Below are positions 39,001 through 58,567 of a stretch of DNA of 64,000 bases, one piece after another (the first letter of the stretch is position 1; every line of letters begins with the position of its first letter). This stretch comes from an uncultured cyanobacterium (GTDB lineage: Bacteria > Cyanobacteriota > Cyanobacteriia > CAKZMO01). The position numbers and the translations under genes are program-made. The stretch covers positions 64,001 to 128,000 of the forward strand of contig CAVRCJ010000008.1 in assembly GCA_963719515.1 (NCBI GenBank), given 5' to 3'. The notes below the pieces were generated by a model. The model was not told the origin of the DNA, ran no database searches, and worked only from the letters and a program-made list of their open reading frames with translations.

Positions 39001-39371
39001 TCATCAGCGAAAAGTACTTGAAATCGGAAAACTGCATGTTTGAGCTGCTAGAACTCTTGAAAAACGGAAGCTTCCTCGATAGGATTTTCCCCATTGTTCT
39101 CAGCGATGCCAAAATCTACAAAGCTCGTCCACGGCTTCAATACGTCAAGCATTGGGAAGCAGAGATTAAAGCATTAGACGAAGATCTAAAAACTGTCGAT
39201 GCCGCCAACCTTCAGGGGTTCCGAGAAGACATCGACCTCTACACCGAAATTCGAGGGGCGATCGCCGAACTCACCAACACCCTCAAAGACATGAACACCC
39301 TCACCGCCGAGATTCACCAAGATTCAGACTTTGAAGCATTGATCGAGGCAATAGAGAAACAGCTAGAGTAA
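36081..39371 (+). CDS. Roco-family LRR-Roc-COR-TIR protein
   Basis: 23-aa LRRs; Roc GTPase (EAKLLIVGEGGAGKT, WDFGGQEIYHQTHQFFLT); COR (YLHDLG, ILKPDW, YEFMPKG, IPCNCSQC); C-terminal TIR (IFISYAW, IISEKYLKSENCMFEL). Confidence 0.93.
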   Translation: MAMTRDELLALIDRAEREDWEELDLAGNGLEELPPEIGRLTGLKRLILGRWDEERFETLGNQLSSLPPEIGQLTTLQSLDLRGNQLSSLPPQIAQLTTLQSLNLFNNQLSSLPPEIGQLTTLQSLNLSGNQLSSLPPEIVQLTTLQSLDLSGNQLSSLPPQIVQLTTLQSLDLRFNQLSSLPPEIVQLTTLQSLDLRYNQLSSLPPEIVQLTTLQSLYLRFNQLSSLPPEIVQLTTLQSLYLGYNQLSSLPPEIVQLTTLQSLYLSSNQLSSLPPEIVQLTTLQSLDLSGNQLSSLPPEIVQLTTLQSLDLRGNQLSSLPPEIVQLTTLQSLDLSYNQLSSLPPEIGLLTSLEKLDLRGNPVPIPLEILGPKESYEDPGSSKEILDFYFQAQDPNQQEYLYEAKLLIVGEGGAGKTSLAKKVENEAYDLNPDEKTTEGIDVIRWDFPLPDERTFRVNVWDFGGQEIYHQTHQFFLTERSLYALVVDERRESANFYYWLEVVKLLSGNSPVLLIKNEKQDRQCQVNDRQLQRDFPSIQKILPANLKTNRGLANIKAAVQQHISKLDHVGNPLPKYWVRIRSALENYAQHCNHISLEKYFDLCQQFGFTDKTNMLRASKYLHDLGICLHFQKDDLLKKTVILKPDWATTAVYKVCDTDKVKENQGRFTRDDLKEIWQDSQYREMQGELLQLMKQFKLCYEIPGLNNTFIAPHLLPLDQPEYDWDAADNLIIRYEYEFMPKGMLTQFIVEMHRLIERQVLVWKTGVVVTDGQGPSRGDMKSYRPHKGEIKVTASGTNKKLLLERVRHELWKIHESYDDLPYKELIPCNCSQCKSDRKPESYPYDLLQKYLNDRRYSIECRRSYEDVDVRKLMADVVQSYAAAEDSYKVQRSEFDRFNSDRAHSGQTTPINHVETYSNKEIFISYAWGGDSEAMADKIEAVCQQRKIPLIRDKRDLGFKGLIKDFMRRIGRGKAVIVIISEKYLKSENCMFELLELLKNGSFLDRIFPIVLSDAKIYKARPRLQYVKHWEAEIKALDEDLKTVDAANLQGFREDIDLYTEIRGAIAELTNTLKDMNTLTAEIHQDSDFEALIEAIEKQLE
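36261..37157 (+). repeat. 69-nt coding tandem repeat array (12 near-identical LRR units plus one diverged unit)
   Basis: AACCAGCTGAGCAGCCTGCCGCCT recurs every 69 nt from 36261 to 37089. Confidence 0.97.
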
Positions 39372-40811: not shown

Positions 40812-42668
40812 ATGGCTGCAGCGCCTCCCAACTCCGACCCCGACCTCTCCCCCACCAAACGCGCCCTGATCGCCCTCAAGCAGCTCCAGGCCAAGCTCGA
40901 CACCCTCGAAGCCGCCCAGCACGAGCCGATCGCCATCGTGGGCATGAGCTGCCGCTTTCCGGGCGGCGTCGAAACCCCAGACGCCTTTTGGACCCTGCTA
41001 GAGCAGCAAACCGACGCCATCACCGAAGTTCCAGGCGATCGCTGGCCCATCGAAGACTACTACAGCCCCGACCGCGACGCCCCCGGCAAAATGGTCTCCC
41101 GCCACGGCGGCTTCGTGCCCCACCTCTACGACTTCGACGCCCCCTTCTTCCGCATCGCCCCCCGAGAAGCGATCGCCCTCGACCCGCAGCAGCGGCTGTG
41201 GCTAGAGCTGGGGTGGGAAGCGCTAGAGCATGCGGGCATTGCCCCCGACAGCGTAGCGGGCCAGCCCGTCGGCGTATTCCTCGGCATCAGCAGCGTAGAC
41301 TACTGGCAGCGACTGTTGGCCCAGCACCCCGAGGCCATCAACGCCTACCTGGCCACAGGAAACACCCACAGCGTCGCCGCCGGACGGCTGTCTTTTCTCC
41401 TTGACGTCACTGGCCCTAGCCTCGCGGTAGATACCGCCTGCGCCTCATCCCTAGTCGCTGTACATCTGGCCTGCCAAAGCCTGCGTCAGCAAGAGTGCAC
41501 CCTGGCGATCGCAGGCGGCGTCAACCGCATCATTACCCCAGAGGCCAGCATCAACTTTTCTAAGGCACGGATGCTCTCGGCGGACGGGCGCTGCCGCACC
41601 TTTGACCAAACCGCCAGCGGATTTGGCCGGGCAGAGGGGGGCGGTGCGGTGGTGCTCAAGCGGCTCAGCGATGCCGAGGCGGCGGGCGATCGCATTGAGG
41701 CGGTGATTCTCGGCTCGGCGGTAAACCACGACGGGCGCACCAGTGGACTGACGGTCCCCAATGGGCCCGCTCAGCAGGCGGTAATTCGTCAAGCGCTGCA
41801 GGCCAGCCGCATCGAGCCGGATGCGGTGGGCTACATAGAGACCCACGGGACGGGGACGGCCCTAGGCGACCCGATTGAAGTGGGGGCACTGGGAGCGGTT
41901 TTTGGAGCGCGATCGCCCGAGCACCCGCTTATTCTCGGGGCCGTCAAGACCAACGTCGGCCATCTAGAATCTGCTGCGGGCATGGCGGGCCTCATCAAAG
42001 CGGTGCTAACCACCCAGCAAGACAGAATCCCCGCCAACCTACACCTGTCCGCCCCCAACGCCCATGTCGACTGGGCTACGTTCCCCTTCAAACTGCCCGC
42101 AGCCCCCACTCCTTGGCCATCGGGCCGCACCGCTGGGGTCAGCGCCTTTGGCTTTAGCGGCACCAACGCCCACATTGTTCTCACGTCGCCCGATCTGGCA
42201 GAGGGTCCAGCCGCCGCGCCGCCCAATCCATCGCCGCCCAACCTGTTGCCGCCCGACCTATCGCCGCCCAAACTCCTGCCGCTCTCCGCCCGCACCCCCG
42301 CAGCTCTTAAACAGCTCGTGGCAAGGTACGCCCAGCATCTGACAGCCCACCCCGAGCTAAACCTGGCCGATCTCTGCTTCACCGCCAGCGTAGGGCGATC
42401 GCACTTCCCCTGCCGTTTGGCGATCGTGACCTCGACGCAGGCCGAACTCCGCCGCGCCCTCATCGACGTCCTAGCGGAGCGGCCCAACGCGACCTGCTGG
42501 ACCTCCGACAGCGCTTCCCCAGAACCCGGCTCAGATCTAGAGCGGCTGGCACAGAGCTATACCCAAGGGGAGGCGATCGTCTGGGGAGAGAGATACGGTG
42601 CGGCGCACCGGAAGGTTGTCCTCCCCACTTACCCCTTTCAGCGGCAGCGGCACGAAGTAACGGGATAA
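40812..42668 (+). CDS. type I PKS-like stand-alone ketosynthase (docking domain + KS, no AT or ACP)
   Basis: [18 protein letters not shown] docking helix, [42 protein letters not shown]; then LLPLSAR...GRSHF leads straight to [10 protein letters not shown]. Confidence 0.93.
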
Positions 42669-42702
42669 AATTGGACGTGAATTCAAACGGACCTCAACCG
42701 CC

Positions 42703-43566
42703 TTGAACCAAAAGCCATCAGGTCAAAACTCAGAGCATGATACGAGGGCTGTACAGACCCGCCCCCACGCCATCATCACCGGTGGCTCCAGCGGCATTGG
42801 CCGCGCGATCGCCCTACGCCTAGCCCGCCAGGGCGCAAATATCTCCATCCTCGCTCGCCGCCCCGACCAGCTAGACACAGCCCAAAAGGACATCCAGCAG
42901 GCGGGCAGCGCGGCGCAGCAGGTGCTGGCGCTGTCCGCAGACGTCAGCGATCGCCCCCAGGCGGAAAAGGCCATCCAGCAGGCGATCGCCCAGCTCGGCC
43001 CACCCCAATGGCTGATCACCTGCGCCGGTATCGCCCGCCCCGGCCACTTCCAGGAGATTCCCATTGAAGTATTTGAGCAGACGATGGCCATCAACTACTT
43101 CGGCACTCTGTACTGCATCCGCGCCGCGCTGCCCGCCATGGCGCAGGGACATATTGCCCTAGTGTCGTCAGGGGCCGGGCTAGTGGGTCTGTATGGCTAC
43201 AGCGCCTACTGCCCCAGCAAATTTGCCCTCCGGGGTCTGGCCGAAGGGCTGCGGGCGGAGCTAAAGCCCATGGGCATCAAGGTGGCGATCGCCTATCCCC
43301 CGGATACCGACACGCCCCAGCTGGCCGAAGAAAACAAGACCAAACCCCCCGCCACCAAGGCCATCACCGCCACAGCAGACGTCTGGTCCGCCGACGGGGT
43401 AGCCCGCGTCATTTTAGAAGGCATGGATCGCGGTAGATTCGCCATCACTCCGGGCGTCGAGATGGGCGTGCTCAACCAGCTGCACAGCCTCATTGCCCCG
43501 CTGCTCAACCGCTACTTCGATCGCATCGTCGCCCGCCACCCCGGCCCAACTAAGGTCAGCGGGTAG
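42703..43566 (+). CDS. SDR oxidoreductase, 3-ketodihydrosphingosine reductase (KDSR/Tsc10)-like
   Basis: HAIITGGSSGIG, INYFGT, VSSGAGLVGLYGYSAYCPSKFALRGLAE, AYPPDTDTPQLAEENKTKP (the PPDTDTP...EN..KP motif typical of KDSR-like SDRs). Confidence 0.85.
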   Translation: MNQKPSGQNSEHDTRAVQTRPHAIITGGSSGIGRAIALRLARQGANISILARRPDQLDTAQKDIQQAGSAAQQVLALSADVSDRPQAEKAIQQAIAQLGPPQWLITCAGIARPGHFQEIPIEVFEQTMAINYFGTLYCIRAALPAMAQGHIALVSSGAGLVGLYGYSAYCPSKFALRGLAEGLRAELKPMGIKVAIAYPPDTDTPQLAEENKTKPPATKAITATADVWSADGVARVILEGMDRGRFAITPGVEMGVLNQLHSLIAPLLNRYFDRIVARHPGPTKVSG

Positions 43567-43570
43567 GGAC

Positions 43571-45295
43571 GTGGCGCTGCCCCCCGACAAAATATCTACC
43601 CCGCCCCGCCCGGCACGCCATTGGCCTTATCTAGCGCTTAGCCTAGCGGCCCCGCTGTACTACGGCGCGGTCACCCTGCATCACGTATTCAGCCACGAGT
43701 TCATCGTCCAAGACGACATGCGGCAGCACGTGGTGTGGTTTCAGCAGTTCCTCGACCCGGCGCTGTTTAACGGAGACGCGATCGCCCAATATTTTCGCAG
43801 CGTTGCGCCGCCCGGCGTCACTGCGGTCTACTGGCTGGGGGTGCAGATGGGCATTGAACCGCTGCTGCTGGCCAAGCTGCTGCCCTTGCCCCTGGCGCTA
43901 ATCGCCACCGTTTTCTTGTTTTACACCACCCTGGCGATCGCCCCTCTGCCCCGCGCCGCCTGGATAGCCACACTCATCTTTAATCAGCACCTGTGGCTCA
44001 ACGACGACCTAGTGTCCGCCACGCCGCGGGCGTTCGTCTATCCTCTATTCGCGGCCTTTCTCTACTACGCCGTGCGGCCAGCCCTAATCCCCATGCTGGT
44101 GTCGTTGGCCCTGCTAGGGCTGTGCTTCCCGCAGATGATGCTGGTGGCAGTCGCGACCCTGGTGGTGGGGCTGGTGGGGCGAGGCCCTTCAACCCGATGG
44201 CGCAATTGGATGTGCCTGACGCGGGACCGCCGCCGCTGGCTCGCGGCCATTCTAGGGCTGGGGGTGGCGATCGCCGTCGCCTTGCCCTTTGCCGCTGGCC
44301 TATCCGACTACGGGGAGGCTGTGACGGCGGCGCAGATGCGATCGCTGCCGGAGTACAGGGCTGGGGGCCGCAACGAATACTTCGGGATGTCCCCAGCTAG
44401 TTTCCTGCTGCACGGCTCAAGCGGCGTGCGCATTCCCGTCTTTCCCTCGATTATCTGGGCGGGATTTGCGCTGCCCTTTGTCCTCCGGCGTAAGTCTTCT
44501 TCGACCCCTTTTGTCACATCCCAGAAAATCCTGCAGGATTTAATGGTAGGGTCTTTCGGCCTTTATCTTTTGGCCCACTTGCTGCTGCTGCGTCTGCATT
44601 TTCCGAGCCGCTACCTCTACCACAGCTGGCGGTTTGTGCTGCCCATTGCGGCGGGGATTGTGCTGGCGGCGCTGATGGCGCGGGGAAGGTCCCCTAAGCC
44701 CCCCCCACAGGCCATCAAGGCTAGCGCCTTCGCTAGCGCGGCCAAACCCCTCTATGCCCTAGCCGCCGTATTGCTCATCGGCGTGCCTATGCTGCCCCCG
44801 CTCATGCTGGCATTTCAGGGCTGGGTCGTAGGCGAAATCCCAGCCGTCTATCGCTATCTCGAAACCCAACCCACCAATATTCAAGTCGCGTCCCTAGCCC
44901 CGGAAGGCAATAACCTCCCCGCCTTCGCCCACCGCAGCGCCTGGGTCGGACGAGAGTTCGCCCTGCCCCACCACCCGCAGTACTACGCCATTGTCCGGCA
45001 GCGCACCGCTGATCTGCTTCGGGCCCTCTACAGCCCCGAGCCCTCAGACCTGCTGCAGTGGCTTGACCAAACAGGGGTTAACTTTCTCCTAGTTGAAGGC
45101 GCGACCTTTGAGCCGGGCTACCTACGCCAAGACTGGCTTGCCAATAGCAGTCTACGGCCCCAGGTCAAAGACATCATGGCGCAGCGGGGCAGCCAGCCGG
45201 CAATTCTCAGTGCCCTGTCCGCCTGCAGCGTCATCACCACAGCGCGATATGACCTAGTCGACACCGCCTGCCTCCGGACCCAGCTAGCGCGGTAG
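43571..45295 (+). CDS. polytopic membrane protein, possibly GT-C-like
   Basis: About ten hydrophobic segments, acidic QDD motif in the first loop after TM1, FPSRY motif and a soluble C-terminal domain; GTG 5 nt after the SDR stop. Confidence 0.7.
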   Translation: MALPPDKISTPPRPARHWPYLALSLAAPLYYGAVTLHHVFSHEFIVQDDMRQHVVWFQQFLDPALFNGDAIAQYFRSVAPPGVTAVYWLGVQMGIEPLLLAKLLPLPLALIATVFLFYTTLAIAPLPRAAWIATLIFNQHLWLNDDLVSATPRAFVYPLFAAFLYYAVRPALIPMLVSLALLGLCFPQMMLVAVATLVVGLVGRGPSTRWRNWMCLTRDRRRWLAAILGLGVAIAVALPFAAGLSDYGEAVTAAQMRSLPEYRAGGRNEYFGMSPASFLLHGSSGVRIPVFPSIIWAGFALPFVLRRKSSSTPFVTSQKILQDLMVGSFGLYLLAHLLLLRLHFPSRYLYHSWRFVLPIAAGIVLAALMARGRSPKPPPQAIKASAFASAAKPLYALAAVLLIGVPMLPPLMLAFQGWVVGEIPAVYRYLETQPTNIQVASLAPEGNNLPAFAHRSAWVGREFALPHHPQYYAIVRQRTADLLRALYSPEPSDLLQWLDQTGVNFLLVEGATFEPGYLRQDWLANSSLRPQVKDIMAQRGSQPAILSALSACSVITTARYDLVDTACLRTQLAR

Positions 45296-46141
45296 GTTGA
45301 GGCCCACGTAGCCCATGACGCTGTCCCGCCCCGGATTGCTGTCGAAGGTGTTGGCATTAGAGATGTGGTGCCAGCGTAGCCCCACCATCAGCCGCTCCTC
45401 ATCGCTGAGGCGAATGGTCGCGCCACCGCCCGCTTGGGGGGTGAAGTTGAAGCTCGACCCGCCGCTGGGCACGTTGTCGGTGGTGCCCAATATCCCAGCG
45501 CCGCCGTCAACGTACAGGGACCAGTTTTCCTGGCGCACAAAGTGGTAGCGCAGCAGCAGGTTCAAGTTCGCGCCCACCGCGTCATCTCCGTCCTGGCTAA
45601 AGGCCATGCCGTTTAGCTCAGCGTTGATGCTGTGACCCTTGGCAAAAAAGTGAGACGCCCCGACCCCAACCAGCGCGAACTCATTGTCGAAGGTGGTGGC
45701 GGCTCCGCTCTGGATATACCAACGGTCAGAGCCTCTGGCCCCGAACGCCTCAGGGCGATTTTCGCGGGTCTCAGCGCTATTGGGGGTACCGTTGGGAGCG
45801 CTATCAGAGGCGCTGTTTGGGGGCGCTGCCGTCTGCGCCACTAGGTCTAGCGCTTCGGTCAGATCAATGGCCTCGGGGGGCGCTATGGTCACCACTTCCT
45901 GGCTTGCCGGGGAGGCGATCGCGGTCGGCGTAGCGGCAGCTGCCTCAGAGATTCCTAATCCGGCCTCGGGTGGCCCTCCTGCCCAGGCAGCGTCAGCCCC
46001 AGGCGCGACCGTAGCCGCCGTCAAGCAGGCTGCGGTGTAGGCCCACCGCTTGGCAGTTCGGGAGGCCGAGAGCCTTTGAACAGTTGAGGACAGCGATGCT
46101 GTATTGTGACCGCTGGGGCGAGGAAGTCCTGAATAAGTCAT
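45284..46141 (-). CDS. PagL-like outer-membrane acyloxyacyl hydrolase (lipid A 3-O-deacylase family)
   Basis: Signal-like N-terminus and low-complexity linker, then beta-strand pattern LLRYHF, YVDGGAG, FNFTPQAGGG, RWHHISNA, NPGRD. Confidence 0.82.
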   Translation of the reverse strand: MTYSGLPRPSGHNTASLSSTVQRLSASRTAKRWAYTAACLTAATVAPGADAAWAGGPPEAGLGISEAAAATPTAIASPASQEVVTIAPPEAIDLTEALDLVAQTAAPPNSASDSAPNGTPNSAETRENRPEAFGARGSDRWYIQSGAATTFDNEFALVGVGASHFFAKGHSINAELNGMAFSQDGDDAVGANLNLLLRYHFVRQENWSLYVDGGAGILGTTDNVPSGGSSFNFTPQAGGGATIRLSDEERLMVGLRWHHISNANTFDSNPGRDSVMGYVGLNLPR

Positions 46142-46247
46142 GTGGTGTGTCGAGCAGTAGTTAAACGGCGCTGAGGGCGTGACGGCAACAAAGCAGCCTA
46201 TATGTTCTCATTTCCAGCGGTTGACTTCCCTCATCCGGCTAACCACT

Positions 46248-47306
46248 TCATAGGGCTGCAGTGAAGTGGTCCACCAGCTCCGCTGTAGTGACGAGCTTCG
46301 TTCGAGGCTGCCCCTCCTGATACAGATCAGCGGTGCGATCGCCCTCAGCTAAAAGCCGCTCCTGAATTGCCATCAGCCGCCGCGCGGCCTGCTTTTCTCC
46401 CCACTGCTCCAGCATCAGCGCCACGGCGGCCAGCGTCCCCAGCGGGTTGGCGATGCCCTTGCCCGCAATATCAGGGGCGGTGCCGTGGACCGGCTCGTAA
46501 AGCCCGAAGCCCTCGGCGTTGAGGCTGGCCGACCCCAGCAGCCCGATAGAGCCAGCGATCGCGCCTCCAAGGTCACTCAAGATATCGCCAAATAGGTTTC
46601 CCGCCAAGATCACGTCGAAGGTCTGGGGGCGCATAACGAGCTGCATCGCCAGGTTGTCCACCAGCATTGGCAGTACGGTCACCTCAGGAAAGCCCTGGGC
46701 CTCTTCTCGAACCAGCCGCGTCCAGGGGATGTGGGGCAGAGCGTTTTCCTTATGGGCGACGGTGAGGTGCTGACGGCGCGACTGGGCATGGCGCAGGGCC
46801 ACCCTGGCGATGCGGCGAATTTCGGCGTCGGCGTAGCGCATGGTGTGGAAGCCATAGCCCCCCTCACCGCTTTTATCGCCTCGCCCCGAGGGGCCAAAGT
46901 AAAGGCCACTCACCAGCTCTCGCACAAACAGCAGGTCTACGCCTTTGAGTAAATTCGGCTTTAGGGGAGAAGTCTGCAGCAGGCTGGGAGACGGGCGCAC
47001 CGGACGCAGGTTAGTAAAGAGGTCAAAATGCCGCCGCAGCGCCAGCAGACCGCCCTGGGTCACTGCCCCAAACAGGATGCCGTCTGCCCCCTCGCACAGA
47101 TGCAGGGTTTCCTGAGGGAGGGCGACCCCGAACCGCTGCCGCGCCGGTTCGCCAATCCAGCCCCGCTCGACGGTGACCGTAAAGCCCTCGGCAGAGGCGA
47201 TCGCCGCCAGCACGGTCAGGCTCCCCTCGACCACCTCCGGGCCGATGCCCTCCCCAGGCAGCGCCGCCAGCCGGTAGCGTCGCGGAGACCGCTCAGGGAC
47301 GCTCAC
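46248..47306 (-). CDS. isocitrate/isopropylmalate dehydrogenase family enzyme (LeuB paralog)
   Basis: LPGEGIGPEV, NLRP, VREL..GLYFG, VDNLAMQL, NLFGDILSD, EPVHGTAPDIAGKGIANP; GTGA overlap with the PKS stop. Confidence 0.9.
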   Translation of the reverse strand: MSVPERSPRRYRLAALPGEGIGPEVVEGSLTVLAAIASAEGFTVTVERGWIGEPARQRFGVALPQETLHLCEGADGILFGAVTQGGLLALRRHFDLFTNLRPVRPSPSLLQTSPLKPNLLKGVDLLFVRELVSGLYFGPSGRGDKSGEGGYGFHTMRYADAEIRRIARVALRHAQSRRQHLTVAHKENALPHIPWTRLVREEAQGFPEVTVLPMLVDNLAMQLVMRPQTFDVILAGNLFGDILSDLGGAIAGSIGLLGSASLNAEGFGLYEPVHGTAPDIAGKGIANPLGTLAAVALMLEQWGEKQAARRLMAIQERLLAEGDRTADLYQEGQPRTKLVTTAELVDHFTAAL

Positions 47307-50300
47307 AGCGCTGCGGCCTGCAAAATCAGCAGCTCGTCGGCCAAGACCTGCAGCGTCTGGCGAATCTGCGCTTCGGTATGCAGGCAGCTAATGAAGAACC
47401 GCAGTCGGGCCGCATCGTAGGGCACCGAGGGGTAGACCATCGGCTGCACGTTGATGCCCTGCTGGAACAGAATGTGGGAGAGCTGTACCGCCTTGCGGGG
47501 TTCGCCCACGATGATGGGCACCACGGGGGAGTCCTGACTAGCCCCAGTGTTGAGACCGTGGGACTGGGCCAACGACAAAAACAGCTGCGAGTTCGCCTGC
47601 ACCTGGGCCACTCGTTCAGGTTCGGCCTGCAGCACCGCCAAGGCGGTCAGCGCCGCAGCGGCATTGGCAGGAGACATGCCGACGCTGAAGATAAATCCCG
47701 GAGCCGTGTATTTGAGGTACTCCACCAGGGCAGAGCAGCCCGCGATATAGCCGCCGCAGCTGGCAAAAGACTTGCTGAGGGTGCCCATCCACAGGTCTAC
47801 TGACCCAGGCGGGACGCCAAAGTGCTCGCCAATGCCCCGCCCTCGCGCCCCCAGCACCCCGATGGAGTGGGCCTCATCCACCAGCAAAAAGGCGTGGTGC
47901 TTCGCCTTGACCCGCACCATGTCGGGCAGGGGCGACAGGTCGCCATCGGTGCTGTACACGCCTTCGATCGCCACCAGCACTTTTTCGTAGTGGCGGCGGT
48001 GCTCATGGAGCAGCTGGTCCAAGGCTTGCCAGTCGTTGTGAGGGAACTCAATGGCGGTAGCCCCAGACAGGTTGCACCCCTCGCGGATGCTGTTGTGGCT
48101 GAGGGCATCGTAGAGAATTAGGTCTTTTTCTTGGAACAGGTGGCCAATGGTCGTGACGTTGGTGGCGTGGCCGCCGATGTAGGCAATGGAAGATTCGGTG
48201 CCCAGGAACTGGGCGATCGCCTGCTCTAGGGCTAAGTGGACCGGGCGCTCCCCTGACACCACGCGGCTGGCGGACACAGAAGTCCCGTACTGGGCGATCG
48301 CGGCCTGGGCGGCGGCATTGACCCTGGGGTCGCCCGACAGTCCTAGGTAGTTGTAGCTGGCGTAGCTGATCAGCGATCGCCCCTGGACCTGGGTGGTGTC
48401 GCGGGCGGTGCCTTCGTGGACCGTGAAGAAGGGATTGCCCAGCAGGCTGAGGCGATCGAGATCTTGGCGGAGGCCGAGGTATTCGGGGGTTTGGTGAAAC
48501 TGGTAGTGGGCTGGAGGGGGCGTATAGGAAGGCGCTGGTTGCAGGGGCGATTTGGGCGCTGCGCCGTTTGTCCCTTGATTGGTGGGGTGGGCAGAGGAGC
48601 CGTTGGCCGGCGGTGGAGTTTTGGGCTGCGGTTGAGGAGTGGGCGGGGCGGTAGGGCGGGGCTCTGAGGCTAAAGGCTCTGAGGCTAAAGGCTCTGAGGC
48701 CGAGGGCGTTGGGGCCGAGGGCAGTGGGGCCGCCGGGAGGTCCAGCGTCGTCGCCAAATGGGCCGCCAGGGCATTGACGGTGGGATAGTCAAAGGCCTGG
48801 GTCTGGGGCACCGGGCGTCCCAGGCTTTTCTGCAGGCGGTTGCTGAACTCCACCGCCATTAGAGAATCCATCCCCAGGTCCCCAAATCGCTCGTTTGGGT
48901 CAATTTGGTTCGGGGCGCTGAAGCCCATGACTTTGGCGAGCTGGGCCTGCAGGTGGGTAGCCAGCAGGGCGACGCGATCTGAGCTGTGGATGAGCTGGTT
49001 GAGAAATTCTGTCGCCCCAGGCGAGTCGGGTCGAATTGGTTTAAGCCCTTTGAGCAGGGATGTTGAGCCGCTCAAGGGACTAGAAGCTACAGTGCGATCG
49101 ACGGGAAGAATGCCGATTTGAGGTTGACCCTGCCCCATGGCGTCTTCAAGCAGCGCCAAGCCGGTCTCAACCGGAATCGCCGTCAGTCCCTGGGCCGCAA
49201 ACCGCCGCTGCTGCTGCTCGCCTAGCCGCGCTGCCATACCCACCTCAGCCCAAGGCCCCCAGTCGAGGCTGAGGGCCGGCAGGCCCAAGCTGGCGCGGTG
49301 GTGGGCGATCGCATCGAGAAAGGCGTTGGCGGCGGCGTAGCTGCCCTGACCGGGGGAGCCGACGAGGGCAGCCATGGAGGAAAAGCAGACGAAGTGGTCC
49401 AAGTCCACGGCCTGGGTGAGCTGGTGCAGATTCCAGGCTCCCGCCACTTTAGGGGCCATTACCGCCGCCATCCGCTCCCAAGACTGGTTGACCAGCAGGC
49501 CGTCATCTAAGGTACCCGCCAGGTGGAATACGCCCTTGAGCGGCGGCGCTACCGCAGCTAGGCAGGGCGCGATCGCCGCTTTTAGGGCGCTCAAATCCGC
49601 TACGTCGGCCTGAAGGATTTGAACGCTAACGCCCTGGCCCTCTAGCCGCTGAATAGTCTGCTGTGCGTCTTCTGAGGGCGATGGCCCTGACGGACCGGTC
49701 CGAGACCCACGCCGTCCCAGCAGCGTCAGATGGCGCGCCCCCTGTTCCGCCAGCCACTCCGCCAGCCGCAGCCCCAACGATCCTAGCCCCCCAGTAACCA
49801 GGTAGGCGGCATCAGCGCGAATCAGCGGAGCAGCGGGGGGAACCGCCGGCAGCATCAGCACCACCTTACCCACATGCCTCGCCTGGGCCATGTAGCGAAA
49901 GGCGTCTGGAGCCGACTGAATGGGGAACACCGTTTTAGGCAGCGGGGAGAGCGTCCCGGACTTAAACTGCGCCATTAGGGCTTTGAGAATGTCTGCAATT
50001 AGGGGGGGGTTGTCTCGGGAGACCTCCAGCAGGTCAAAGGGGAAGTAGGCCACATCGGGCCGTACCTGCCCCATCTGCTCGGCGTCCCAGATGCCAATCT
50101 TGCCAATTTCAACAAACCGTCCCTCGGAGGCCAGGGCCGCCAGGCTTTTGGCGATCGCCTCTCCGTTGAGGCTGTTGAGCACCACGTCGACCCCCTTTCC
50201 CGCCGTTGCCGCCAGCAGCTCGTCGGCGAAGTCTAGGGTGCGGGAGTTCATGACCGGCACCCCCATAGCCCGCAGCACGGGCCACTTCGGCGGACTTGCG

Positions 50301-53300
50301 GTGGCAAACACCTCCGCCCCCAGGGAGTGGGCCACCTGGACCGCCGCCTGCCCGACTCCCCCCGCCGCCGCATGAATGAGGACGCGATCGCCTGCCTTTA
50401 GCTGCGCCAGGTGAACCAGCCCGTAGTAGGCCGTGAGGAACGTCGTGGGTAGGGTCGCCGCTTCTGCAAAGCTCAGAGTATCGGGCTTGGCGATGACGAA
50501 GTCGGTGGACGTCGTCACAAACTGACTCAGGCTGCCCATGGTTTGGGCGACAATTACCGCCTCCCCAACCTCTAGGGTGGTGACGCCTGCGCCAACCGCC
50601 GTCACAACGCCCGCACATTCGCCGCCAAACGGAACGTCAGCAGCGGTGGCAAACCCCATTGCCTCCGCCACAGTCTGCAGCAGCCCCAGGGCGTTTAGCA
50701 CATCTCTAAAGTTGAGCCCTGACGCCTTCACCTGAACCTCCACCTCCCCGGCTTGAGGCGATCGCCGCTGGCTGGGTACTAGCGCTAAGTTATCGAGGAC
50801 GCCGTAGCTAGACAGCCCCAGGCGAAACGACGCGGCGTCAGGAATTGCGGCTTTGGGGGGAGTGCAGGGCAGCAGCCGCGCTACAAAGCGCTTGTCCTGG
50901 CGGTAGGCGATCTCGTCCTCCCCGTCACCATGCTGCAGGTCTGCCAGCAGCAGCGCCATCGTCTCCGGCGTGAGCAAGTCGGGCAAGTCGACGCTGGTGC
51001 AGCCCCAGCTGGGGTGCTCTTGGCGCAGGGTGCGGGCCAGCCCCCAGAGGGTTGTCTGAGACAGATGCAGCGGCGACGGGGCTTCTACGGCCTGGGCGGC
51101 TTGGGTGACCAGCCATAGGCGCAGAGGCTGGTCATTCTGGTCATTCTGATAATTAGAGAAAAGGCCAGCCATCGACTGCAGGAGGCGCATCAGGCTGCCG
51201 CAGCTTTGCTCCTGGGCGGCCAAGCTTCCCGGCGACTCTGGGCTGCGGCCCAGTCCCCAAAGGTAAAGCAGTCGAATCGGCTGGCCGGCGCTCACGGGTT
51301 CAATGCGCGCCTGCAGCTGCTGAAAGGCATCAGGCGCTTTAGGGTCGAGGCTGTAGATATCCTCCGACGGCTGAGCGCCCCCCGGCATCACCACCAGGCA
51401 GCGATCGCCCTGTGCCTCTAAGGCCGCGCCAATTTGCGCCCCAACGCTCTTGCGGCCCGCTTGCGGCGCATCGGCAAAAATGAGCCAGGTGTGTGCCTTT
51501 ATTGGAGGCTTGGTTGGACTGGCTGAAGACAGGTTGGGCTGCAGCTGCCATAAAAGCTGGTAGCGCCAGTCTGCATGGGATGGAGCGGTAGGTGCGGTGG
51601 GTGACGAGGTCGTGGGCGATACCGTCGTGGGTGATACCGTCGTGAGCGGTGGCGTCGTGGGCCATGGGGCCGTCGGTGCCAATAGCCGAGCCAAGGACTC
51701 CCGACTGACGTACCTCAGGGTTAACCCCGTCACCTGAGCGGCGATCGCCCCGCTGTCATCCCAAAGCGCCAGGTCAGCCTTCAGCACCTTGGGGGGAGAC
51801 CCGTTAGCGCCGCCGCTAAGTTCACCACGCGTCGCCCCAAGCCAGACGCCGCACCAGCCCGACGCCCCCAAAGCGTGATGGACCTGAAGCGCCTCAACGC
51901 CAATAGGCAAGTAGGTTCCCGATAGATTCGACCCGACCGACCCAATCGTCTGAAAGGCCGCGTCGAGCAGCACAGGATGCAGGCAATAGCCCTGAACCTC
52001 AACGCCCTGTGGACAGCAAATTTGGCTTAGGGCCTGGCTGCCGCGCTGCCAGAGCTGCTGAATGCCGCGAAAGGCGGGTCCGTAGTGCAGCCCCTGGTCC
52101 GCAAGGGCCTGGTAGTAGGCCGCTGGGTCTATGGGGTAGGGCTGTAGGGCGGCCTGAAGGCTGGCGAGGGGTGCGGCATTAAAAGCGGCATCGCGGCTCA
52201 GGGTGGCGGCGCTGTGGCGCGTGTGGCTCTCCGCAGAAAAACTTTTTTCAGAGAAGCTGTAGATCTGCAGCGTCGCCGCGTCGCCGTCGGGCGTCAGCAC
52301 CAGCTGCAGGTCCGTTGGCTGCTCAGATAGGCGCAGCGGCTGCTCAATAGTCACATCCCGCAGCGAGAGCGGAGTGGATGACCATTGCAGTCCAGCGGCG
52401 ATCGCCATCTCTAAGTAGGCCGCGCCGGGAAAGATAGCCTGACCCGCCACGCAGTGGTCGGCCAAATAGCGGGGAGACTGCACGCTGAGCTGGGCTTGAA
52501 AGCGCTGCTGCTGGGTCCCTGCCAAAGGAAGGCGGCTGCCCAAAAGGGGATGCCCGGCGCTGAGCAAAGATAGCCCCGGCGAGGCCGCCCCGGAAGTCTT
52601 TGCCCCAGCCCACCAGTAGCGCTGCCGCTGAAAGGGATAGGGGGGCAGCGACACAGGCGGGCAATTGGCCACCACTGCCGCCCAGTCCAGCATCGCCCCC
52701 CGCTCGTACAGCTTCGCTAAGCTGCTTAACATCATTGCGTCCTCGGGCAGTTCCGGCCGCAGGCTTGGCAGCCACGCAGCGTCTGACTGCGGCAGACACC
52801 CCAGCCCCATGCCGAGCAAGATAGGCTTGGCCCCCAGCTCCAGGAAGCAAGGCCTGGTCTTGGTCTGCTCGTGGAGGGCGGTCATCGCCTCTAGAAACCG
52901 CACCGGCTCCCGCACATGGCGCACCCAGTAGTCAGGCGTGGCGATTTCGTCAGTGATTAATGTGCCGGTTAACGTGGAAAATAGCGGCACCTCGGGAGTG
53001 CTATAGCGCACTGACTCCGCGACCTCGCGAAATGCCCCTACCATCGGCTCCATCAGGGGAGAGTGAAAGGCGTGGGAGACCCGCAGCGGCCTGCAGTCTA
53101 GCCCCTTAGCCTCTAGCACTTCCACCGCCGCGTCAAACGCCGCTGGCTCGCCCGATATCACCGTATTTTCAGGGCCGTTGGTGGCCGCAATGGCCACTAC
53201 ACCCTCGAAGGGCGCGATCGCCGCCGCCACAGCCTGCGCCGCGGCCCGCACCGCCGCCATCTTGCCCCCCGGCAGCGCCTGCATCAGCCGTCCCCGCGTT

Positions 53301-55282
53301 GCCACCAGCTTCAGGGCATCTTCCAGGCTAAATACCCCCGCTACGCAGGCCGCCACGTACTCCCCCACGCTGTGCCCCAAAACCGCAGATGGGCGAATGC
53401 CCCAAGAGAGCCACAGCTGCGCTAGGGCGTACTCCAGGGCAAAGAGAGACGGCTGGGTGTTGAGGGTTTGCTCCAGCTGCTTCTCCGCAGCGGCAGCATG
53501 GCTGTCTGGATACAGAATCTCCAGCAGCGGCACGGGCAGCAGGTCGGCGCACCGCTGCAGCGCTTTGCGGAAGACCGGCTGGCTATTGTAGAGTTCGCGG
53601 CCCATACCGACGGACTGGGAGCCCTGGCCCGTGAACAGGAACGCGATAGCGGGCGTTGTCGCGGCTGTCGCGAGAGGGACCTCCTCAGCCGGCCAAGCCT
53701 GCAGCTGCTGCCGCAGAACTGCGGCAGACTCGGCGACAAAAGCCGCCCGGTGGGCAAAGTGCGATCGCCTGCGGGCTGCCGTGGCGCACGCCGCCGCTAG
53801 CGCTGTATCGGGGACGTCTTTGAGCCAGGTTTCGTACCGTTGAATCAGAGCTTTTAGCCCAGTCCGGCTCTTTGCAGAGAGGGGCAGAATCTGGGCTGCA
53901 GGCGGCTGAGAGGGGGGCAATTCGCCTTCGAATGAGCCTCCACCCAGCTCTCGCTCCCCCTTATCCGACTGAGCGCTGGCCAGCACGACGTGGGCGTTCG
54001 TGCCCCCAAAGCCAAAGGAGTTTACCCCAATGTAGGTCTGAGGGCAGGGTAGTGTTTCTTGAGGTAAAGGCTCTAGCCCCGTCTGCACCCTTAGCCCTAG
54101 CCGCTCGAAGTCGATGGCCGGATTGGGCTGGCTGAAGTGCAGGTTGGGGGGAATCTGGCGGTGGTGCAGCATCAGCGCCGCTTTGATTACTCCGGCGACC
54201 CCGGCAGCGGTTTCCGTATGGCCAATGTTGGTCTTCACCGAGCCGATGCGGCAGGGACTGTCGGGCGATCGCCCTTCTGAGAGCACCGCCCCCAGCGCCT
54301 GGGCCTCCACGGGGTCTCCTATTTTGGTACCGGTGCCGTGGGCCTCTACATAGGCGACCTGGGCCGGGTCCACCCCCGCCCGCCGGTAGGCTTCCCGCAG
54401 CACGGCTTCCTGGGCCTTGGGGTTGGGAGCCGCCATCCCCTGGCTAAATCCGTCTTGGTTGACGGCGCTGCCCTGAATCACCGCATAGACCCGGTCACCA
54501 TCGGCCACCGCCTGGGCCAAAGGCTTGAGTACCACCAGCCCCGCCCCCTCGCCGCGCACGTAGCCATCAGCGCTGGCGTCAAAGCTCTTACAGCGCCCGC
54601 TGCCCGACATAAAGCCACCCTTAGAGAAGCCCATGGTGACGGTGGAGAGCAGCAGCGCGTTCACCCCTCCGGCGATCGCCATATCAGACTCCCCATTCCA
54701 CAGGCTCTGGCAGGCCAGATGCAGGGCTACTAGGGACGAGGAGCAAGCGGTGTCAACGGCGAGGCTCGGCCCTTTGAAGTCAAATAAGTAGGAGATACGG
54801 TTGGCGGCGATGCAGTTGCCGGTGCCCGTGGTGGCGTAAGGCTCGTTCACCGGCTGCTGCCACAGCATGATGGAGTAGTCGTGGGTGCCAATGCCGATAA
54901 AGACCCCGGTTTTTGAGCCTCGCAGGCGATCGGGCACTTCCCCCGCGTCCTCCAGCGCTTCCCAGGTCACCTCTAGCAGCAGCCGCTGCTGCGGGTCCAT
55001 GGTGGCCGCTTCTCGAGGGGCGATGCCGAAGAACTGCGGGTCGAACTGGTCGATCTGCTCGAGGAAGCCGCCCCAGCGCGTGTTCATCTTGTTGGGCACC
55101 GCGGGGTCTGGGTCGTAAACCGAATCTACGGCCCAGCGGGAGGGGGGCACCTCGCTTACCCCGTCGACGCCATTGCAGAGCAGCTGCCAAAAAGCGTCGG
55201 GCGCGTCAGCCCCCCCCGGATAGCGACACCCGATACCAGTGATTGCGATGGGTGCGGGTGGTGTGGGCTGTTGCAGGGTCAT
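47303..55282 (-). CDS. type I PKS KS-AT-DH-ER-KR-ACP fused to a PLP alpha-oxoamine synthase (AONS/SPT-like) domain
   Basis: KS DTACSSS/EAHGTGT/NIGHTE; AT GHSVG + HAFH; DH DHCVAGQAIFP; ER IHAAAGGVG; KR TGGLGSLG/LDD/YAAAN; ACP GMDSL; AOS SYNYLGL, SHNSI, EGVYSTDGD, DEAHSIG, GTLSKS, RLRF. Confidence 0.95.
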   Translation of the reverse strand: MTLQQPTPPAPIAITGIGCRYPGGADAPDAFWQLLCNGVDGVSEVPPSRWAVDSVYDPDPAVPNKMNTRWGGFLEQIDQFDPQFFGIAPREAATMDPQQRLLLEVTWEALEDAGEVPDRLRGSKTGVFIGIGTHDYSIMLWQQPVNEPYATTGTGNCIAANRISYLFDFKGPSLAVDTACSSSLVALHLACQSLWNGESDMAIAGGVNALLLSTVTMGFSKGGFMSGSGRCKSFDASADGYVRGEGAGLVVLKPLAQAVADGDRVYAVIQGSAVNQDGFSQGMAAPNPKAQEAVLREAYRRAGVDPAQVAYVEAHGTGTKIGDPVEAQALGAVLSEGRSPDSPCRIGSVKTNIGHTETAAGVAGVIKAALMLHHRQIPPNLHFSQPNPAIDFERLGLRVQTGLEPLPQETLPCPQTYIGVNSFGFGGTNAHVVLASAQSDKGERELGGGSFEGELPPSQPPAAQILPLSAKSRTGLKALIQRYETWLKDVPDTALAAACATAARRRSHFAHRAAFVAESAAVLRQQLQAWPAEEVPLATAATTPAIAFLFTGQGSQSVGMGRELYNSQPVFRKALQRCADLLPVPLLEILYPDSHAAAAEKQLEQTLNTQPSLFALEYALAQLWLSWGIRPSAVLGHSVGEYVAACVAGVFSLEDALKLVATRGRLMQALPGGKMAAVRAAAQAVAAAIAPFEGVVAIAATNGPENTVISGEPAAFDAAVEVLEAKGLDCRPLRVSHAFHSPLMEPMVGAFREVAESVRYSTPEVPLFSTLTGTLITDEIATPDYWVRHVREPVRFLEAMTALHEQTKTRPCFLELGAKPILLGMGLGCLPQSDAAWLPSLRPELPEDAMMLSSLAKLYERGAMLDWAAVVANCPPVSLPPYPFQRQRYWWAGAKTSGAASPGLSLLSAGHPLLGSRLPLAGTQQQRFQAQLSVQSPRYLADHCVAGQAIFPGAAYLEMAIAAGLQWSSTPLSLRDVTIEQPLRLSEQPTDLQLVLTPDGDAATLQIYSFSEKSFSAESHTRHSAATLSRDAAFNAAPLASLQAALQPYPIDPAAYYQALADQGLHYGPAFRGIQQLWQRGSQALSQICCPQGVEVQGYCLHPVLLDAAFQTIGSVGSNLSGTYLPIGVEALQVHHALGASGWCGVWLGATRGELSGGANGSPPKVLKADLALWDDSGAIAAQVTGLTLRYVSRESLARLLAPTAPWPTTPPLTTVSPTTVSPTTSSPTAPTAPSHADWRYQLLWQLQPNLSSASPTKPPIKAHTWLIFADAPQAGRKSVGAQIGAALEAQGDRCLVVMPGGAQPSEDIYSLDPKAPDAFQQLQARIEPVSAGQPIRLLYLWGLGRSPESPGSLAAQEQSCGSLMRLLQSMAGLFSNYQNDQNDQPLRLWLVTQAAQAVEAPSPLHLSQTTLWGLARTLRQEHPSWGCTSVDLPDLLTPETMALLLADLQHGDGEDEIAYRQDKRFVARLLPCTPPKAAIPDAASFRLGLSSYGVLDNLALVPSQRRSPQAGEVEVQVKASGLNFRDVLNALGLLQTVAEAMGFATAADVPFGGECAGVVTAVGAGVTTLEVGEAVIVAQTMGSLSQFVTTSTDFVIAKPDTLSFAEAATLPTTFLTAYYGLVHLAQLKAGDRVLIHAAAGGVGQAAVQVAHSLGAEVFATASPPKWPVLRAMGVPVMNSRTLDFADELLAATAGKGVDVVLNSLNGEAIAKSLAALASEGRFVEIGKIGIWDAEQMGQVRPDVAYFPFDLLEVSRDNPPLIADILKALMAQFKSGTLSPLPKTVFPIQSAPDAFRYMAQARHVGKVVLMLPAVPPAAPLIRADAAYLVTGGLGSLGLRLAEWLAEQGARHLTLLGRRGSRTGPSGPSPSEDAQQTIQRLEGQGVSVQILQADVADLSALKAAIAPCLAAVAPPLKGVFHLAGTLDDGLLVNQSWERMAAVMAPKVAGAWNLHQLTQAVDLDHFVCFSSMAALVGSPGQGSYAAANAFLDAIAHHRASLGLPALSLDWGPWAEVGMAARLGEQQQRRFAAQGLTAIPVETGLALLEDAMGQGQPQIGILPVDRTVASSPLSGSTSLLKGLKPIRPDSPGATEFLNQLIHSSDRVALLATHLQAQLAKVMGFSAPNQIDPNERFGDLGMDSLMAVEFSNRLQKSLGRPVPQTQAFDYPTVNALAAHLATTLDLPAAPLPSAPTPSASEPLASEPLASEPRPTAPPTPQPQPKTPPPANGSSAHPTNQGTNGAAPKSPLQPAPSYTPPPAHYQFHQTPEYLGLRQDLDRLSLLGNPFFTVHEGTARDTTQVQGRSLISYASYNYLGLSGDPRVNAAAQAAIAQYGTSVSASRVVSGERPVHLALEQAIAQFLGTESSIAYIGGHATNVTTIGHLFQEKDLILYDALSHNSIREGCNLSGATAIEFPHNDWQALDQLLHEHRRHYEKVLVAIEGVYSTDGDLSPLPDMVRVKAKHHAFLLVDEAHSIGVLGARGRGIGEHFGVPPGSVDLWMGTLSKSFASCGGYIAGCSALVEYLKYTAPGFIFSVGMSPANAAAALTALAVLQAEPERVAQVQANSQLFLSLAQSHGLNTGASQDSPVVPIIVGEPRKAVQLSHILFQQGINVQPMVYPSVPYDAARLRFFISCLHTEAQIRQTLQVLADELLILQAAAL

Positions 55283-55506: not shown

Positions 55507-56811
55507 ATGTTTCAAGCCACCCGCAGGCGGCTCGCCCTTTGGTATACCGGCGTCACCGCCGTACTCCTCCTCCTGTTCGCCACCGGCTTTTACCTCTACG
55601 TCCGCCACACCCTCGTCGAGCGGGTCGATGATACCCTCAACCACGTCATCGAAGTCGTCCAGCGATCGCTCGTCATTGAGCCCGACGGGCCCCTAGAGGC
55701 CTCCCAGCTGCACATCAACATCGACGCTAGCTTTCGCAACAAGGCTCAGTCCGTGGAGGATGACCGCATTGACCTTGAGTGGTTCGGCCCTACCGGAACG
55801 CTAGAGTGGTCTACCCTAGAGCAGCCCCTGGCTGTCCCCATCCACCTAAACCCCAACGGCGAAACGGTGTACATCACCGACGACCTGCTGCTGCGGCAGA
55901 TTACCCAGCGCATTCAGGTGGGCCGACAGGTGCTGGGCTATCTGCGGGTGAGCCACCCCTGGTTTGAGGTCACCAAGCCCATCCGCCAGCTGACTGTAGA
56001 CTTAGCGATTGGCACCACGCTGACCCTAGGGGTTGTCGCCGGCATTGGCTGGCTTCTTTCCGGCCTCGCCATGCAGCCCATCCGCCATTCCTACCACCAG
56101 CTTAAGCAGTTCACCGCCGACGCCTCCCACGAGCTGCGCAACCCCATCGCCGTGATTCAAACCAATGTCCAGGTGGCCCTCGCCGACCCGGACCCGGACC
56201 CGCAGCAGCAGGAGGCCCAGTTTCGGGTGGTTGAGCGCGTTACCCGGCGGCTGGGTCGCCTAGTGGACGACCTGCTGTTTTTGGCCCGGCAGGAAAGTGG
56301 TATCGACCAGCAGGCGGCGCAGCCCGTCTCCCTCTACGCCCTGCTCAACGACGTGCTGGACGAGCAGCAGGCGATCGCCGTTGAGCAAGGAGTCACCCTG
56401 ACGCTAGCGCCCAATGAAGAGAGCCCCTATCCCGCGACGCCGCTGTGCTGGGTGGAGGGCGATCGCGACCAGCTAGCGCGGCTGTTCACTAACCTGATTG
56501 GCAACGGGCTGCAGTACACGCCAGCAGGGGGAGCGGTGGCGGTGCAGCTAGACCTGCTCTCCGATGCGGTGCGGGTTGAGGTGAGCGATACGGGCATCGG
56601 CATCTCTGCGGAAGACCTGCCCCATATCTTTGACCGGTTTTACCGGGCTAGCGTCCGAGCCAGTCAGCTGTCCCGCAGTGCCCAAACGGGAACCGGACTC
56701 GGTCTGGCGATCGCCAAGGCCATTGTGGAAAACCATCGCGGCCAGATTGACGTTGGCAACAGCGCCAAGGGAGCGATGTTTACCGTCAAGCTGCCTTTGA
56801 GCGATCGCTAA
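55507..56811 (+). CDS. membrane sensor histidine kinase
   Basis: Two TMs, FTADASHELRNP, LFTNLIGNGLQYT, VSDTGIGI, IFDRFYR, GTGLGLAI. Confidence 0.93.
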   Translation: MFQATRRRLALWYTGVTAVLLLLFATGFYLYVRHTLVERVDDTLNHVIEVVQRSLVIEPDGPLEASQLHINIDASFRNKAQSVEDDRIDLEWFGPTGTLEWSTLEQPLAVPIHLNPNGETVYITDDLLLRQITQRIQVGRQVLGYLRVSHPWFEVTKPIRQLTVDLAIGTTLTLGVVAGIGWLLSGLAMQPIRHSYHQLKQFTADASHELRNPIAVIQTNVQVALADPDPDPQQQEAQFRVVERVTRRLGRLVDDLLFLARQESGIDQQAAQPVSLYALLNDVLDEQQAIAVEQGVTLTLAPNEESPYPATPLCWVEGDRDQLARLFTNLIGNGLQYTPAGGAVAVQLDLLSDAVRVEVSDTGIGISAEDLPHIFDRFYRASVRASQLSRSAQTGTGLGLAIAKAIVENHRGQIDVGNSAKGAMFTVKLPLSDR

Positions 56812-56824
56812 AGGGGTTCGCCCC

Positions 56825-58408: not shown

Positions 58409-58567
58409 GCTGGTGGAGTACGGGTGGTAGTGGCGCGGTGCGCCACTACCACCCAAATCCATACCTCACGCGACTGGAAATCGCTATATGCCGATCTAAA
58501 GTGTGGAGTGTGGGGTATAAGATCAACTGTGGAATCACTGCAGCATTCATCATACGGAGAACTGTCA

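Follow-up and report, generated by a model that had tools for sequence, protein, structure and literature searches.

Polyketide-based routes to long-chain bases

The route from a polyketide synthase (PKS) through an alpha-oxoamine synthase (AOS) to a 3-ketosphinganine reductase (KDSR) has already been shown in a bacterium, as the PfSgaABC system. In Pseudomonas fluorescens MYb115, PfSgaAB makes C24-C28 sphinganines, PfSgaB is a serine-specific serine palmitoyltransferase (SPT), and SgaC was proposed to be the KDSR (Peters et al. 2025, PMC12134224, main text). The genus list given there for 6,101 clusters names no cyanobacterium, and the string “Cyanobacter” is absent from that main text. Here, we analyzed positions 40,812 to 55,282 of a 64,000-nucleotide stretch of an uncultured cyanobacterium (the window; contig CAVRCJ010000008.1), in which a sequence-only reading had seen six genes for a PKS-based sphingoid pathway. 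We consider it highly probable that an amino alcohol is made by the AOS plus the reductase encoded here. By the wiring that we propose below, it is also fairly probable that the window holds the second half of a pathway by which the cyanobacterium would make a serine-derived, N-acylated, glycosylated sphingolipid-like envelope lipid. The genes and domains are as follows.

40812..42668, plus strand: KS-only protein, 618 aa, an AT-less and ACP-less ketosynthase with an N-terminal docking-type helix
42703..43566, plus strand: KDSR/Tsc10-like 3-ketosphinganine reductase homologue, a short-chain dehydrogenase/reductase (SDR), 287 aa, Pfam adh_short
43571..45295, plus strand: GT-C-fold membrane protein, GTG start at 43571, matching exactly a 574-aa database entry
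45284..46141, minus strand: PagL-like outer-membrane beta-barrel (acyl hydrolase family), PF09411, E 2.5e-15
46248..47306, minus strand: HphB-like 2-oxo-acid homologation dehydrogenase (first called a LeuB paralog), Pfam Iso_dh
47303..55282, minus strand: fully reducing PKS module with terminal AOS, Pfam KS-AT-DH-ER-KR-ACP-Aminotran_1_2
Domains within it, minus strand: KS 55252-54134, AT 53641-52742, DH 52552-51689, ER 50752-49856, KR 49810-49244, ACP 48952-48755
about 47306..48517, minus strand: pyridoxal phosphate-dependent AOS domain, SgaB/RkpG type

All six open reading frames (ORFs) lay where they had been claimed, with active-site motifs intact in every domain checked. The PKS ORF reaches 55303; since its relatives begin at the ATG at 55282, this codon is the likelier start. 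The GTG of the membrane protein gene starts 4 bases past the SDR stop codon, and the GTG start of the LeuB-like gene overlaps the PKS TGA.

Like PfSgaABC, this gene set combines a reducing type I PKS that has no thioesterase with an AOS of the same type and a KDSR-like SDR. Compared by eye, the published PfSgaB sequence has SYNYLG, GTSVSASR, GHATNVTTIGHL, HNDW, DEAHS, and MGTLSK in common with the window AOS. The Pseudomonas system differs in its two-gene iterative PKS, free AOS, and phosphoglycerol head groups (PMC12134224, main text). In the cyanobacterium the AOS is fused and would be fed by a keto-acid-loading module, the KS-only protein, and Hph-like enzymes, while a fatty acyl-AMP ligase (FAAL), a family 4 glycosyltransferase (GT4), and the GT-C protein point to an N-acylated glycolipid. 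Judged from these genes, the pathway is one that would work like PfSgaABC without being a plain member of that type.

Other described systems share parts of this logic. The rkp-1 locus of Sinorhizobium and the wcb locus of Burkholderia serve capsule lipids (PMC3908369, accessible text). In S. meliloti Ak57, a PKS gene is followed by genes for an AOS (48% identical) and an SDR (42%, with the same PPDT.TPQ motif). These loci differ in that capsule export genes are linked, the AOS is free-standing, and there is no keto-acid module or FAAL. We take rkpG and rkpH to be the names of the S. meliloti AOS and SDR genes. Canonical SPT plus KDSR, in eukaryotes and Bacteroides-type bacteria, likewise pairs an AOS with a Tsc10-like reductase; the window AOS falls outside the canonical groups and is predicted to use an ACP-bound chain in cis. 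The fungal fumonisin and sphingofungin clusters, set beside our locus by description only (as cited in the main text of PMC12134224), also join a reducing PKS, an AOS, and a KDSR-like reductase, although their products are secreted inhibitors and not membrane glycolipids.

Within the cyanobacteria, Scytonema julianum and Moorea producens are reported ceramide sources, the genetic basis having yet to be described, and Nostoc punctiforme has a BioF-like AOS only, with no sphingolipids found (Belton et al. 2022, PMC8895605, accessible text). The literature that we searched, with subscription journals mostly outside its scope, held no description of a cyanobacterial PKS-AOS/SDR gene set. The main text of Calteau 2014 contains none of the terms “sphingo,” “oxononanoate,” “FAAL,” and “isopropylmalate.”

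A reducing PKS that ends in an SgaB/RkpG-type AOS

Pfam confirmed a reducing type I PKS with the order KS-AT-DH-ER-KR-ACP and found no thioesterase domain in it, in agreement with the earlier description of a megasynthase with a complete reductive loop and an AOS in place of a thioesterase. Motifs were kept throughout: DTACS, HGTGT, and KTNIGH in the KS, GHSVG and HAFH in the AT, the His and Asp motifs of the DH, HAAAGGVG in the ER, YAAAN in the KR, GMDSL in the ACP, and DEAHS and MGTLSK (K2511) in the AOS. Across the KS-AT-DH part, the enzyme is 36% identical to a PKS encoded on a Pseudomonas plasmid.

The AOS domain was then placed in a 71-row tree with family-assigned references (quick method, SH-aLRT support). 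It fell into a 37-row clade with a support of 99 that takes in the AOS paired with the Pseudomonas plasmid PKS (54.8% identical) and the S. meliloti capsule-locus AOS (48%) and leaves out BioF, Kbl, ALAS, and canonical SPT. The comparison suggested in the sequence-only reading, against SPT, BioF, and KBL, thus grouped the domain with the SgaB/RkpG type. Seven PKS-fused copies form a group of their own, also supported at 99. The best PDB match of the domain was the bacterial (Sphingobacterium-type) SPT 3A2B (1.4e-69), and its scores lay under the NCBIfam SPT cut-offs (NF047600, 310.7 against 640; NF047599, 282.1 against 500; NF047603, 218.8 against 670).

The same earlier text had raised against itself that the AOS might act only as BioF on pimeloyl substrates. 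BioF (TIGR00858) is the top NCBIfam match, but at 356 bits it stays under the cut-off of 426, and the domain lies outside the BioF clade. The source genome has two bioY genes and no match over the cut-off for bioB or BioF, and Acaryochloris marina carries a true BioF plus an AOS of our clade. Because of the clade, the bioB and bioY results, and the Acaryochloris pair, a role of this domain in biotin synthesis appears very unlikely, and we rejected it. A second AOS-fold protein of the source genome (contig C3, 25634-26929) sits on a long branch, is 29% identical to the window domain, and falls under every cut-off.

A KDSR-like reductase that co-occurs with AOS genes

Tsc10 (8JAT) was the sole PDB match of the SDR at E ≤ 1e-25 (1.8e-28), and it still came first in an 18-sequence profile search of PDB (4.2e-45). 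TGGSSGxG and YxxSK motifs and a C-terminal P...ENxTKP region are common to the SDR and KDSR/Tsc10. The PPDTDTP...EENKTKP motif described earlier is confirmed by the sequence, where the region reads YPPDTDTPQLAEENKTKPP, and by the alignment of 18 orthologues, across which P-P-D-T-x-T-P-Q shows little or no variation. At least 27 of the 120 SDR relatives listed bear the automatic name 3-dehydrosphinganine reductase. In a tree of bacterial rows, the window SDR grouped with the S. meliloti SDR, apart from the other SDRs of its genome. The SDR of the Pseudomonas plasmid gave no usable match for this tree and was compared pairwise instead.

Co-occurrence was examined in 401 genomes of the phylum, the source genome (G000) counted in; other G numbers are codes of sampled genomes. 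Since related genomes are not independent, we read the counts as patterns and not as tests. AOS orthologues were accepted at E ≤ 1e-110; 3e-81 was the best value among the remaining matches. SDR orthologues were present in 21 genomes and the clade AOS in 24, 16 of which also have the SDR; among the 380 SDR-negative genomes, 8 carry the clade AOS. A non-BioF AOS was found in 20 of the 21 SDR-positive genomes, directly adjacent to the SDR in 8 of 20 fetched loci, so that the earlier worry that the genes might not be syntenic elsewhere was not realized. The GT4 was found in 17 genomes, all SDR positive, and in none of the other 380. Among 80 named loci of SDR relatives, 22 contain an AOS gene; 10 of the 80 are cyanobacterial, and 4 of these have it (Acaryochloris marina, Limnothrix RL_2_0, Thermosynechococcaceae MS004, and Microcystis LSC13-02).

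Four SDR carriers have a different AOS, 34 to 36% identical and fused to FAAL-ACP directly before the SDR; two of these were placed in the tree and fell among canonical-SPT-like proteins. Two AOS lineages in one operon slot are good evidence that the SDR would act on the product of an AOS. Of the co-occurrence foreseen for the six genes, the part concerning the SDR and AOS stood and extends to the GT4. Gene order and linkage differ between genomes, and we rejected a fixed six-gene synteny, along with the idea of the six genes as a complete or fixed unit.

Partner genes elsewhere in the genome and the predicted starter

The window is only part of a pathway that is larger and scattered in the G000 genome. 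G017 has a cluster of about 32 kb with a fused LeuD-LeuC gene, LeuB-like and GT-C-type genes, an Asp/Asn-hydroxylase-family gene, GT4, PagL-like, PKS-AOS, and LeuA-like genes, a loading PKS module, the KS-only gene, a START/cyclase protein gene, the SDR, and the membrane protein gene. A similar cluster lies on plasmid p3 of Planktothrix agardhii NIVA-CYA126/8. The partners in the source genome are as follows.

C13:198454-206965: keto-acid-loading PKS module
C3:748066-752012: phosphopantetheinyl transferase plus, at 748867-752012, LeuA-like (HphA-like) and fused LeuD-LeuC (HphCD-like) proteins
C10:652732: START/cyclase protein
C4:146597: GT4
C10:535700: stand-alone FAAL
C3:21665: OlsC/LpxO-like hydroxylase

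The loading domain of the C13 module matched McyG (3.4e-123) and 6ULX (1.5e-112), which we take to be a keto-acid-selecting domain, compared with 2e-45 for FAALs, and the G017 copy is of the McyG/StsA type too. A FAAL-loaded module was therefore rejected. The assembled C13 gene has a frameshift directly before the DH motif. Three covering contigs from two runs of one study have one base fewer at this site and no frameshift, so an assembly error is likely and a true pseudogene unlikely.

The window LeuB-like protein is 62 to 63% identical to genes of three LeuA-B-CD-type operons beside nonribosomal peptide synthetase (NRPS) genes, reference copies that are orthologues called Hph by inference, and 43% identical to the ordinary LeuB of G000. 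HphA-, HphB-, and fused HphCD-like orthologues were all found in G000. The LeuA-like partner is present in 14 of the 401 genomes, three of them PKS carriers (G000, G017, and G158); of the other 11, 8 were fetched, and in 7 of these it lies beside ORFs with an NRPS condensation motif. As for HphA of the anabaenopeptin clusters (PMC12961565, accessible text), the top PDB match of the HphA-like protein is 6KTQ; two of five pocket positions are exact (Ala159 and Ser242), and the residue at 73 is small. It differs at 157, which is Cys/Ser, an aromatic 2-oxo acid being a candidate substrate only, and the window genes are tied to a lipid-type PKS-AOS and not, as in the HphABCD and McyG systems, to NRPS. 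No Hph-like genes were found in G014 and G202, which keep the PKS-AOS and whose loading-domain pocket motifs differ from those of G000, G017, and G158. Because of the McyG/StsA-type loading domain and the HphB-like LeuB paralog, the starter is probably a chain-extended (homologated) 2-oxo acid.

A second HphB-like gene beside the START protein gene (C10:653372-654421) encodes a protein 55% identical to that of the window, with GNILSN for GDILSD and AYKGG for AHKEN. It is probably an inactive or regulatory copy.

The KS-only protein matches Pfam KS plus linker only and keeps its Cys-His-His residues. Its gene lies directly 3′ of the loading module in G017, G158, and the Planktothrix plasmid. 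A docking-type helix is seen at its N terminus (in all five orthologues examined) and likewise at the C terminus of the loading module, presumably a docking pattern; none was seen at the N terminus of the PKS-AOS. With helices placed in this way, the chain would go first to the KS-only protein, which is the probable hand-over point from the keto-acid-loading module. It may then either extend the chain onto the PKS-AOS module or transfer it to an amine.

In a FastTree tree, the stand-alone FAALs form one clade of 20 rows with a support of 100, across both cluster types (with PKS-AOS or with FAAL-ACP-AOS) and often beside the GT4. The single FAAL found in each of G000, G017, and G158 belongs to it. 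Since clusters with their own FAAL-ACP-AOS keep a stand-alone FAAL too, N-acylation is its likeliest predicted role. Adenylation enzymes that form amides exist.

The membrane protein and the PagL-like barrel

The membrane protein belongs to no Pfam family, and a profile search of PDB gave no matches. A single-sequence model was uninformative (pLDDT 43). An AlphaFold2 model from 106 sequences reached a pLDDT of 91.9, and its best Foldseek matches were STT3, AglB, PglB, DPY19, AftA, and ArnT (E 5.8e-9, TM about 0.5). A QDD motif is near-invariant among relatives. On this model the protein is predicted to be a GT-C glycosyltransferase, and the GT-C fold ruled out an acyltransferase. Its gene is downstream of the SDR in the window, G017, and G158 and adjoins the SDR in G014. 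Because four paralogues (36 to 43% identity) are found elsewhere in G000, its proposed tie to the lipid rests on this position. The PagL-like gene adjoins the PKS-AOS gene in G017 and G014 as well.

Proposed pathway and alternatives

We propose the following wiring. HphA-, HphCD-, and HphB-like enzymes would lengthen a 2-oxo acid by one carbon. The C13 PKS would load this acid by its McyG/StsA-type adenylation domain, the substrate being predicted from the domain type, and extend it with malonyl-CoA and full reduction. Docking helices suggest that the chain then passes via the KS-only protein to the window PKS, where it would be extended again, perhaps several times. The fused AOS would join the acyl-ACP to serine with loss of CO2, yielding a 3-keto long-chain base; its clade is that described above, and serine is predicted from PfSgaB. 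The KDSR-like SDR would, by homology, reduce this base to the amino alcohol. The stand-alone FAAL may add an N-acyl chain and the conserved GT4 the first sugar, and the GT-C protein, PagL-like barrel, and OlsC/LpxO-like hydroxylase may tailor the lipid in the envelope. In other cyanobacteria, the same SDR, FAAL, and GT4 would be combined with a less elaborate front end, FAAL-ACP-AOS. The order first proposed, of a PKS chain, AOS release, KDSR-like reduction, and envelope decoration, is thus supported by homology, trees, and co-occurrence; what it missed is the larger, scattered pathway and the 2-oxo acid starter.

Several observations weigh against this wiring or its product. The pathway is predicted from genes, and these are scattered across G000 contigs. 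If a short 2-oxo acid were extended non-iteratively two or three times, the chain would fall short of membrane-lipid length, and the three Hph-positive clusters form one clade and hence one evolutionary event. Eight of the 24 clade-AOS genomes have no SDR (5 re-checked by profile had general SDRs only), so the clade AOS would serve other products too; conversely, no such AOS was found in the SDR-positive G194 (210 contigs). On the Planktothrix plasmid, the KS-only gene is in two pieces, and no SDR lies within the 41 kb fetched. PfSgaB and PfSgaC are absent from the trees, with the Pseudomonas plasmid AOS (54.8%) as a stand-in. The SDR tree leaves out eukaryotic KDSR and the Pseudomonas plasmid SDR, which, as a proxy for SgaC, is only 32% identical to the window SDR.

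A different wiring could lead to the same product class. The stand-alone FAAL would prime the window PKS with an ordinary fatty acid to give a very long base, and the keto-acid module and KS-only protein would supply the N-acyl chain, with the KS as an acyltransferase. FAALs prime mycobacterial Mas and Pks2, and MS004 has a FAAL-ACP immediately upstream of the PKS-AOS and SDR. Whereas the C13 C terminus and KS-only N terminus look like a docking pair, no docking helix was seen in the window PKS, and AT and ACP domains are both missing from the KS-only protein. However, the same FAAL clade is also kept in clusters that lack a PKS and already have a FAAL-ACP-AOS front end, as would be expected of an N-acylating enzyme, and the KS-only protein keeps both His residues of decarboxylative condensation. 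We regard this arrangement as unlikely.

It is less likely still that the genes make not a membrane lipid but a small, secreted natural product, an amino alcohol or aminoketone, perhaps from a non-serine amino acid such as an Hph-homologated one. Hph-like enzymes and loading domains for keto acids are characteristic of cyanobacterial peptide and polyketide clusters, some genomes have the clade AOS near methyl- and sulfotransferases with no SDR, and one cluster is on a plasmid. The conserved partners, however, are of lipid type (GT4, GT-C, PagL-like, OlsC/LpxO-like and fatty-acid hydroxylases, a flippase, and inositol-phosphate synthase), and G014 and G202 keep the PKS-AOS while missing the Hph genes.

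It is very improbable that the main role of the amino alcohol is as a lipid that anchors or carries surface polysaccharide, as proposed for the rkp-1 and wcb capsule loci. The S. meliloti and Pseudomonas plasmid loci do unite a PKS, a 48 to 55% identical AOS, and an SDR with capsule-export genes, and GT-C and flippase genes are present in the cyanobacterial clusters. But no KpsC/KpsS or lipoteichoic acid synthase-like genes were identified in the 40.8- to 55.3-kb stretch or the scanned neighbors, where we looked without a genome-wide search.

That the AOS is a BioF with a PKS-made pimeloyl substrate, or the cluster a decaying relic, is scarcely credible and largely refuted: the top NCBIfam match, the lack of another BioF in G000, and the frameshifted partner PKS would suit it, but the score and clade, the bioB, bioY, and Acaryochloris results, the three contigs that have no frameshift, and the intact motifs speak against it.

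Taken further, the proposed wiring would mean that cyanobacteria have a glycosphingolipid route of their own: a stand-alone FAAL-type ligase would form the ceramide, and in the lineage studied here a homologated aromatic 2-oxo acid would prime the base, giving omega-aryl sphingolipids. This stronger version is speculative, and we consider it doubtful. No description of a FAAL-type ligase as a ceramide-forming enzyme was found in the literature searched.

Candidate producers

The gene set is a candidate genetic source of the few sphingolipids reported from cyanobacteria. Moorena producens records include an ACP-AOS 62% identical to the window domain, and in Moorena records the SDR is two accession numbers away from it (e.g., EGJ32282 and EGJ32284). 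Moorena is a reported cerebroside producer, the strain that gave the cerebroside being possibly another. Culturable named carriers are Acaryochloris marina MBIC11017 and Moorena producens, with Lyngbya sp. PCC 8106 for the SDR. AOS, KDSR-like reductase, FAAL, and GT4 occur together in about 5 of 100 sampled phylum genomes. If the proposed pathway is right, it would extend PKS-derived sphingolipids past the genera listed in 2025 (PMC12134224, main text), predict a new way to make the ceramide amide, and bear on the origin of sphingolipids in environmental lipidomes.

Related loci and neighboring genes

Five loci (L028, L029, L033, L034, and L097) hold an operon of FAAL-ACP-AOS, SDR, FAAL, GT4, flippase, and fatty-acid hydroxylase genes in that order, with an AOS that is canonical-SPT-like and outside the SgaB clade; a cyanobacterial glycosphingolipid could be tested for most simply with this operon. 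The SDR carriers that have no conserved GT4 are G116, with GT28-type genes beside the SDR, G364, with CarS-like and MBOAT genes beside it, G162, and G298. In G298 (L023:69-11776), FAAL-ACP-AOS and the SDR stand amid genes for inositol-1-phosphate synthase, Stealth, LicD, another GT4, a CarS-like protein, and a lipid kinase, a candidate set for an inositol head group.

Outside the cyanobacteria, Stappia and Shimia loci (L107, L109, and L115) have genes for an AOS, inositol-1-phosphate synthase, and this SDR side by side. In Chloroflexota loci (L110, L121, L125, L128, L129, L132, L133, and L141), the SDR is followed directly by an AOS, and those scanned scored best on the CFB SPT model, under its cut-off. 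In L083, L088, L089, L090, and L091, a clade AOS that has no KDSR-like SDR lies near methyltransferase, acyltransferase, KS III, or sulfotransferase genes; such loci may encode other aminoketone pathways.

A separate NRPS-PKS hybrid is encoded at C6:313618-324959 of G000 (3183 aa plus 613 aa), split in the KR region and beside MBOAT-like genes. The G+C content of the gene stretch is 63 to 65%, compared with 54 to 63% in the preceding 40 kb. A scan of the stretch gave no promoter-like sites and 15 terminator-like sites against 11.4 expected, which is uninformative. At 55507-58462 of the window, a histidine kinase gene is divergent from the PKS gene and a Ser/Thr kinase gene convergent on it. 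At 36081-39371, a 1096-aa protein has many near-identical leucine-rich repeats followed, by eye, by a GTPase-like and TIR-like part, and its gene coincides with a dip in GC skew.

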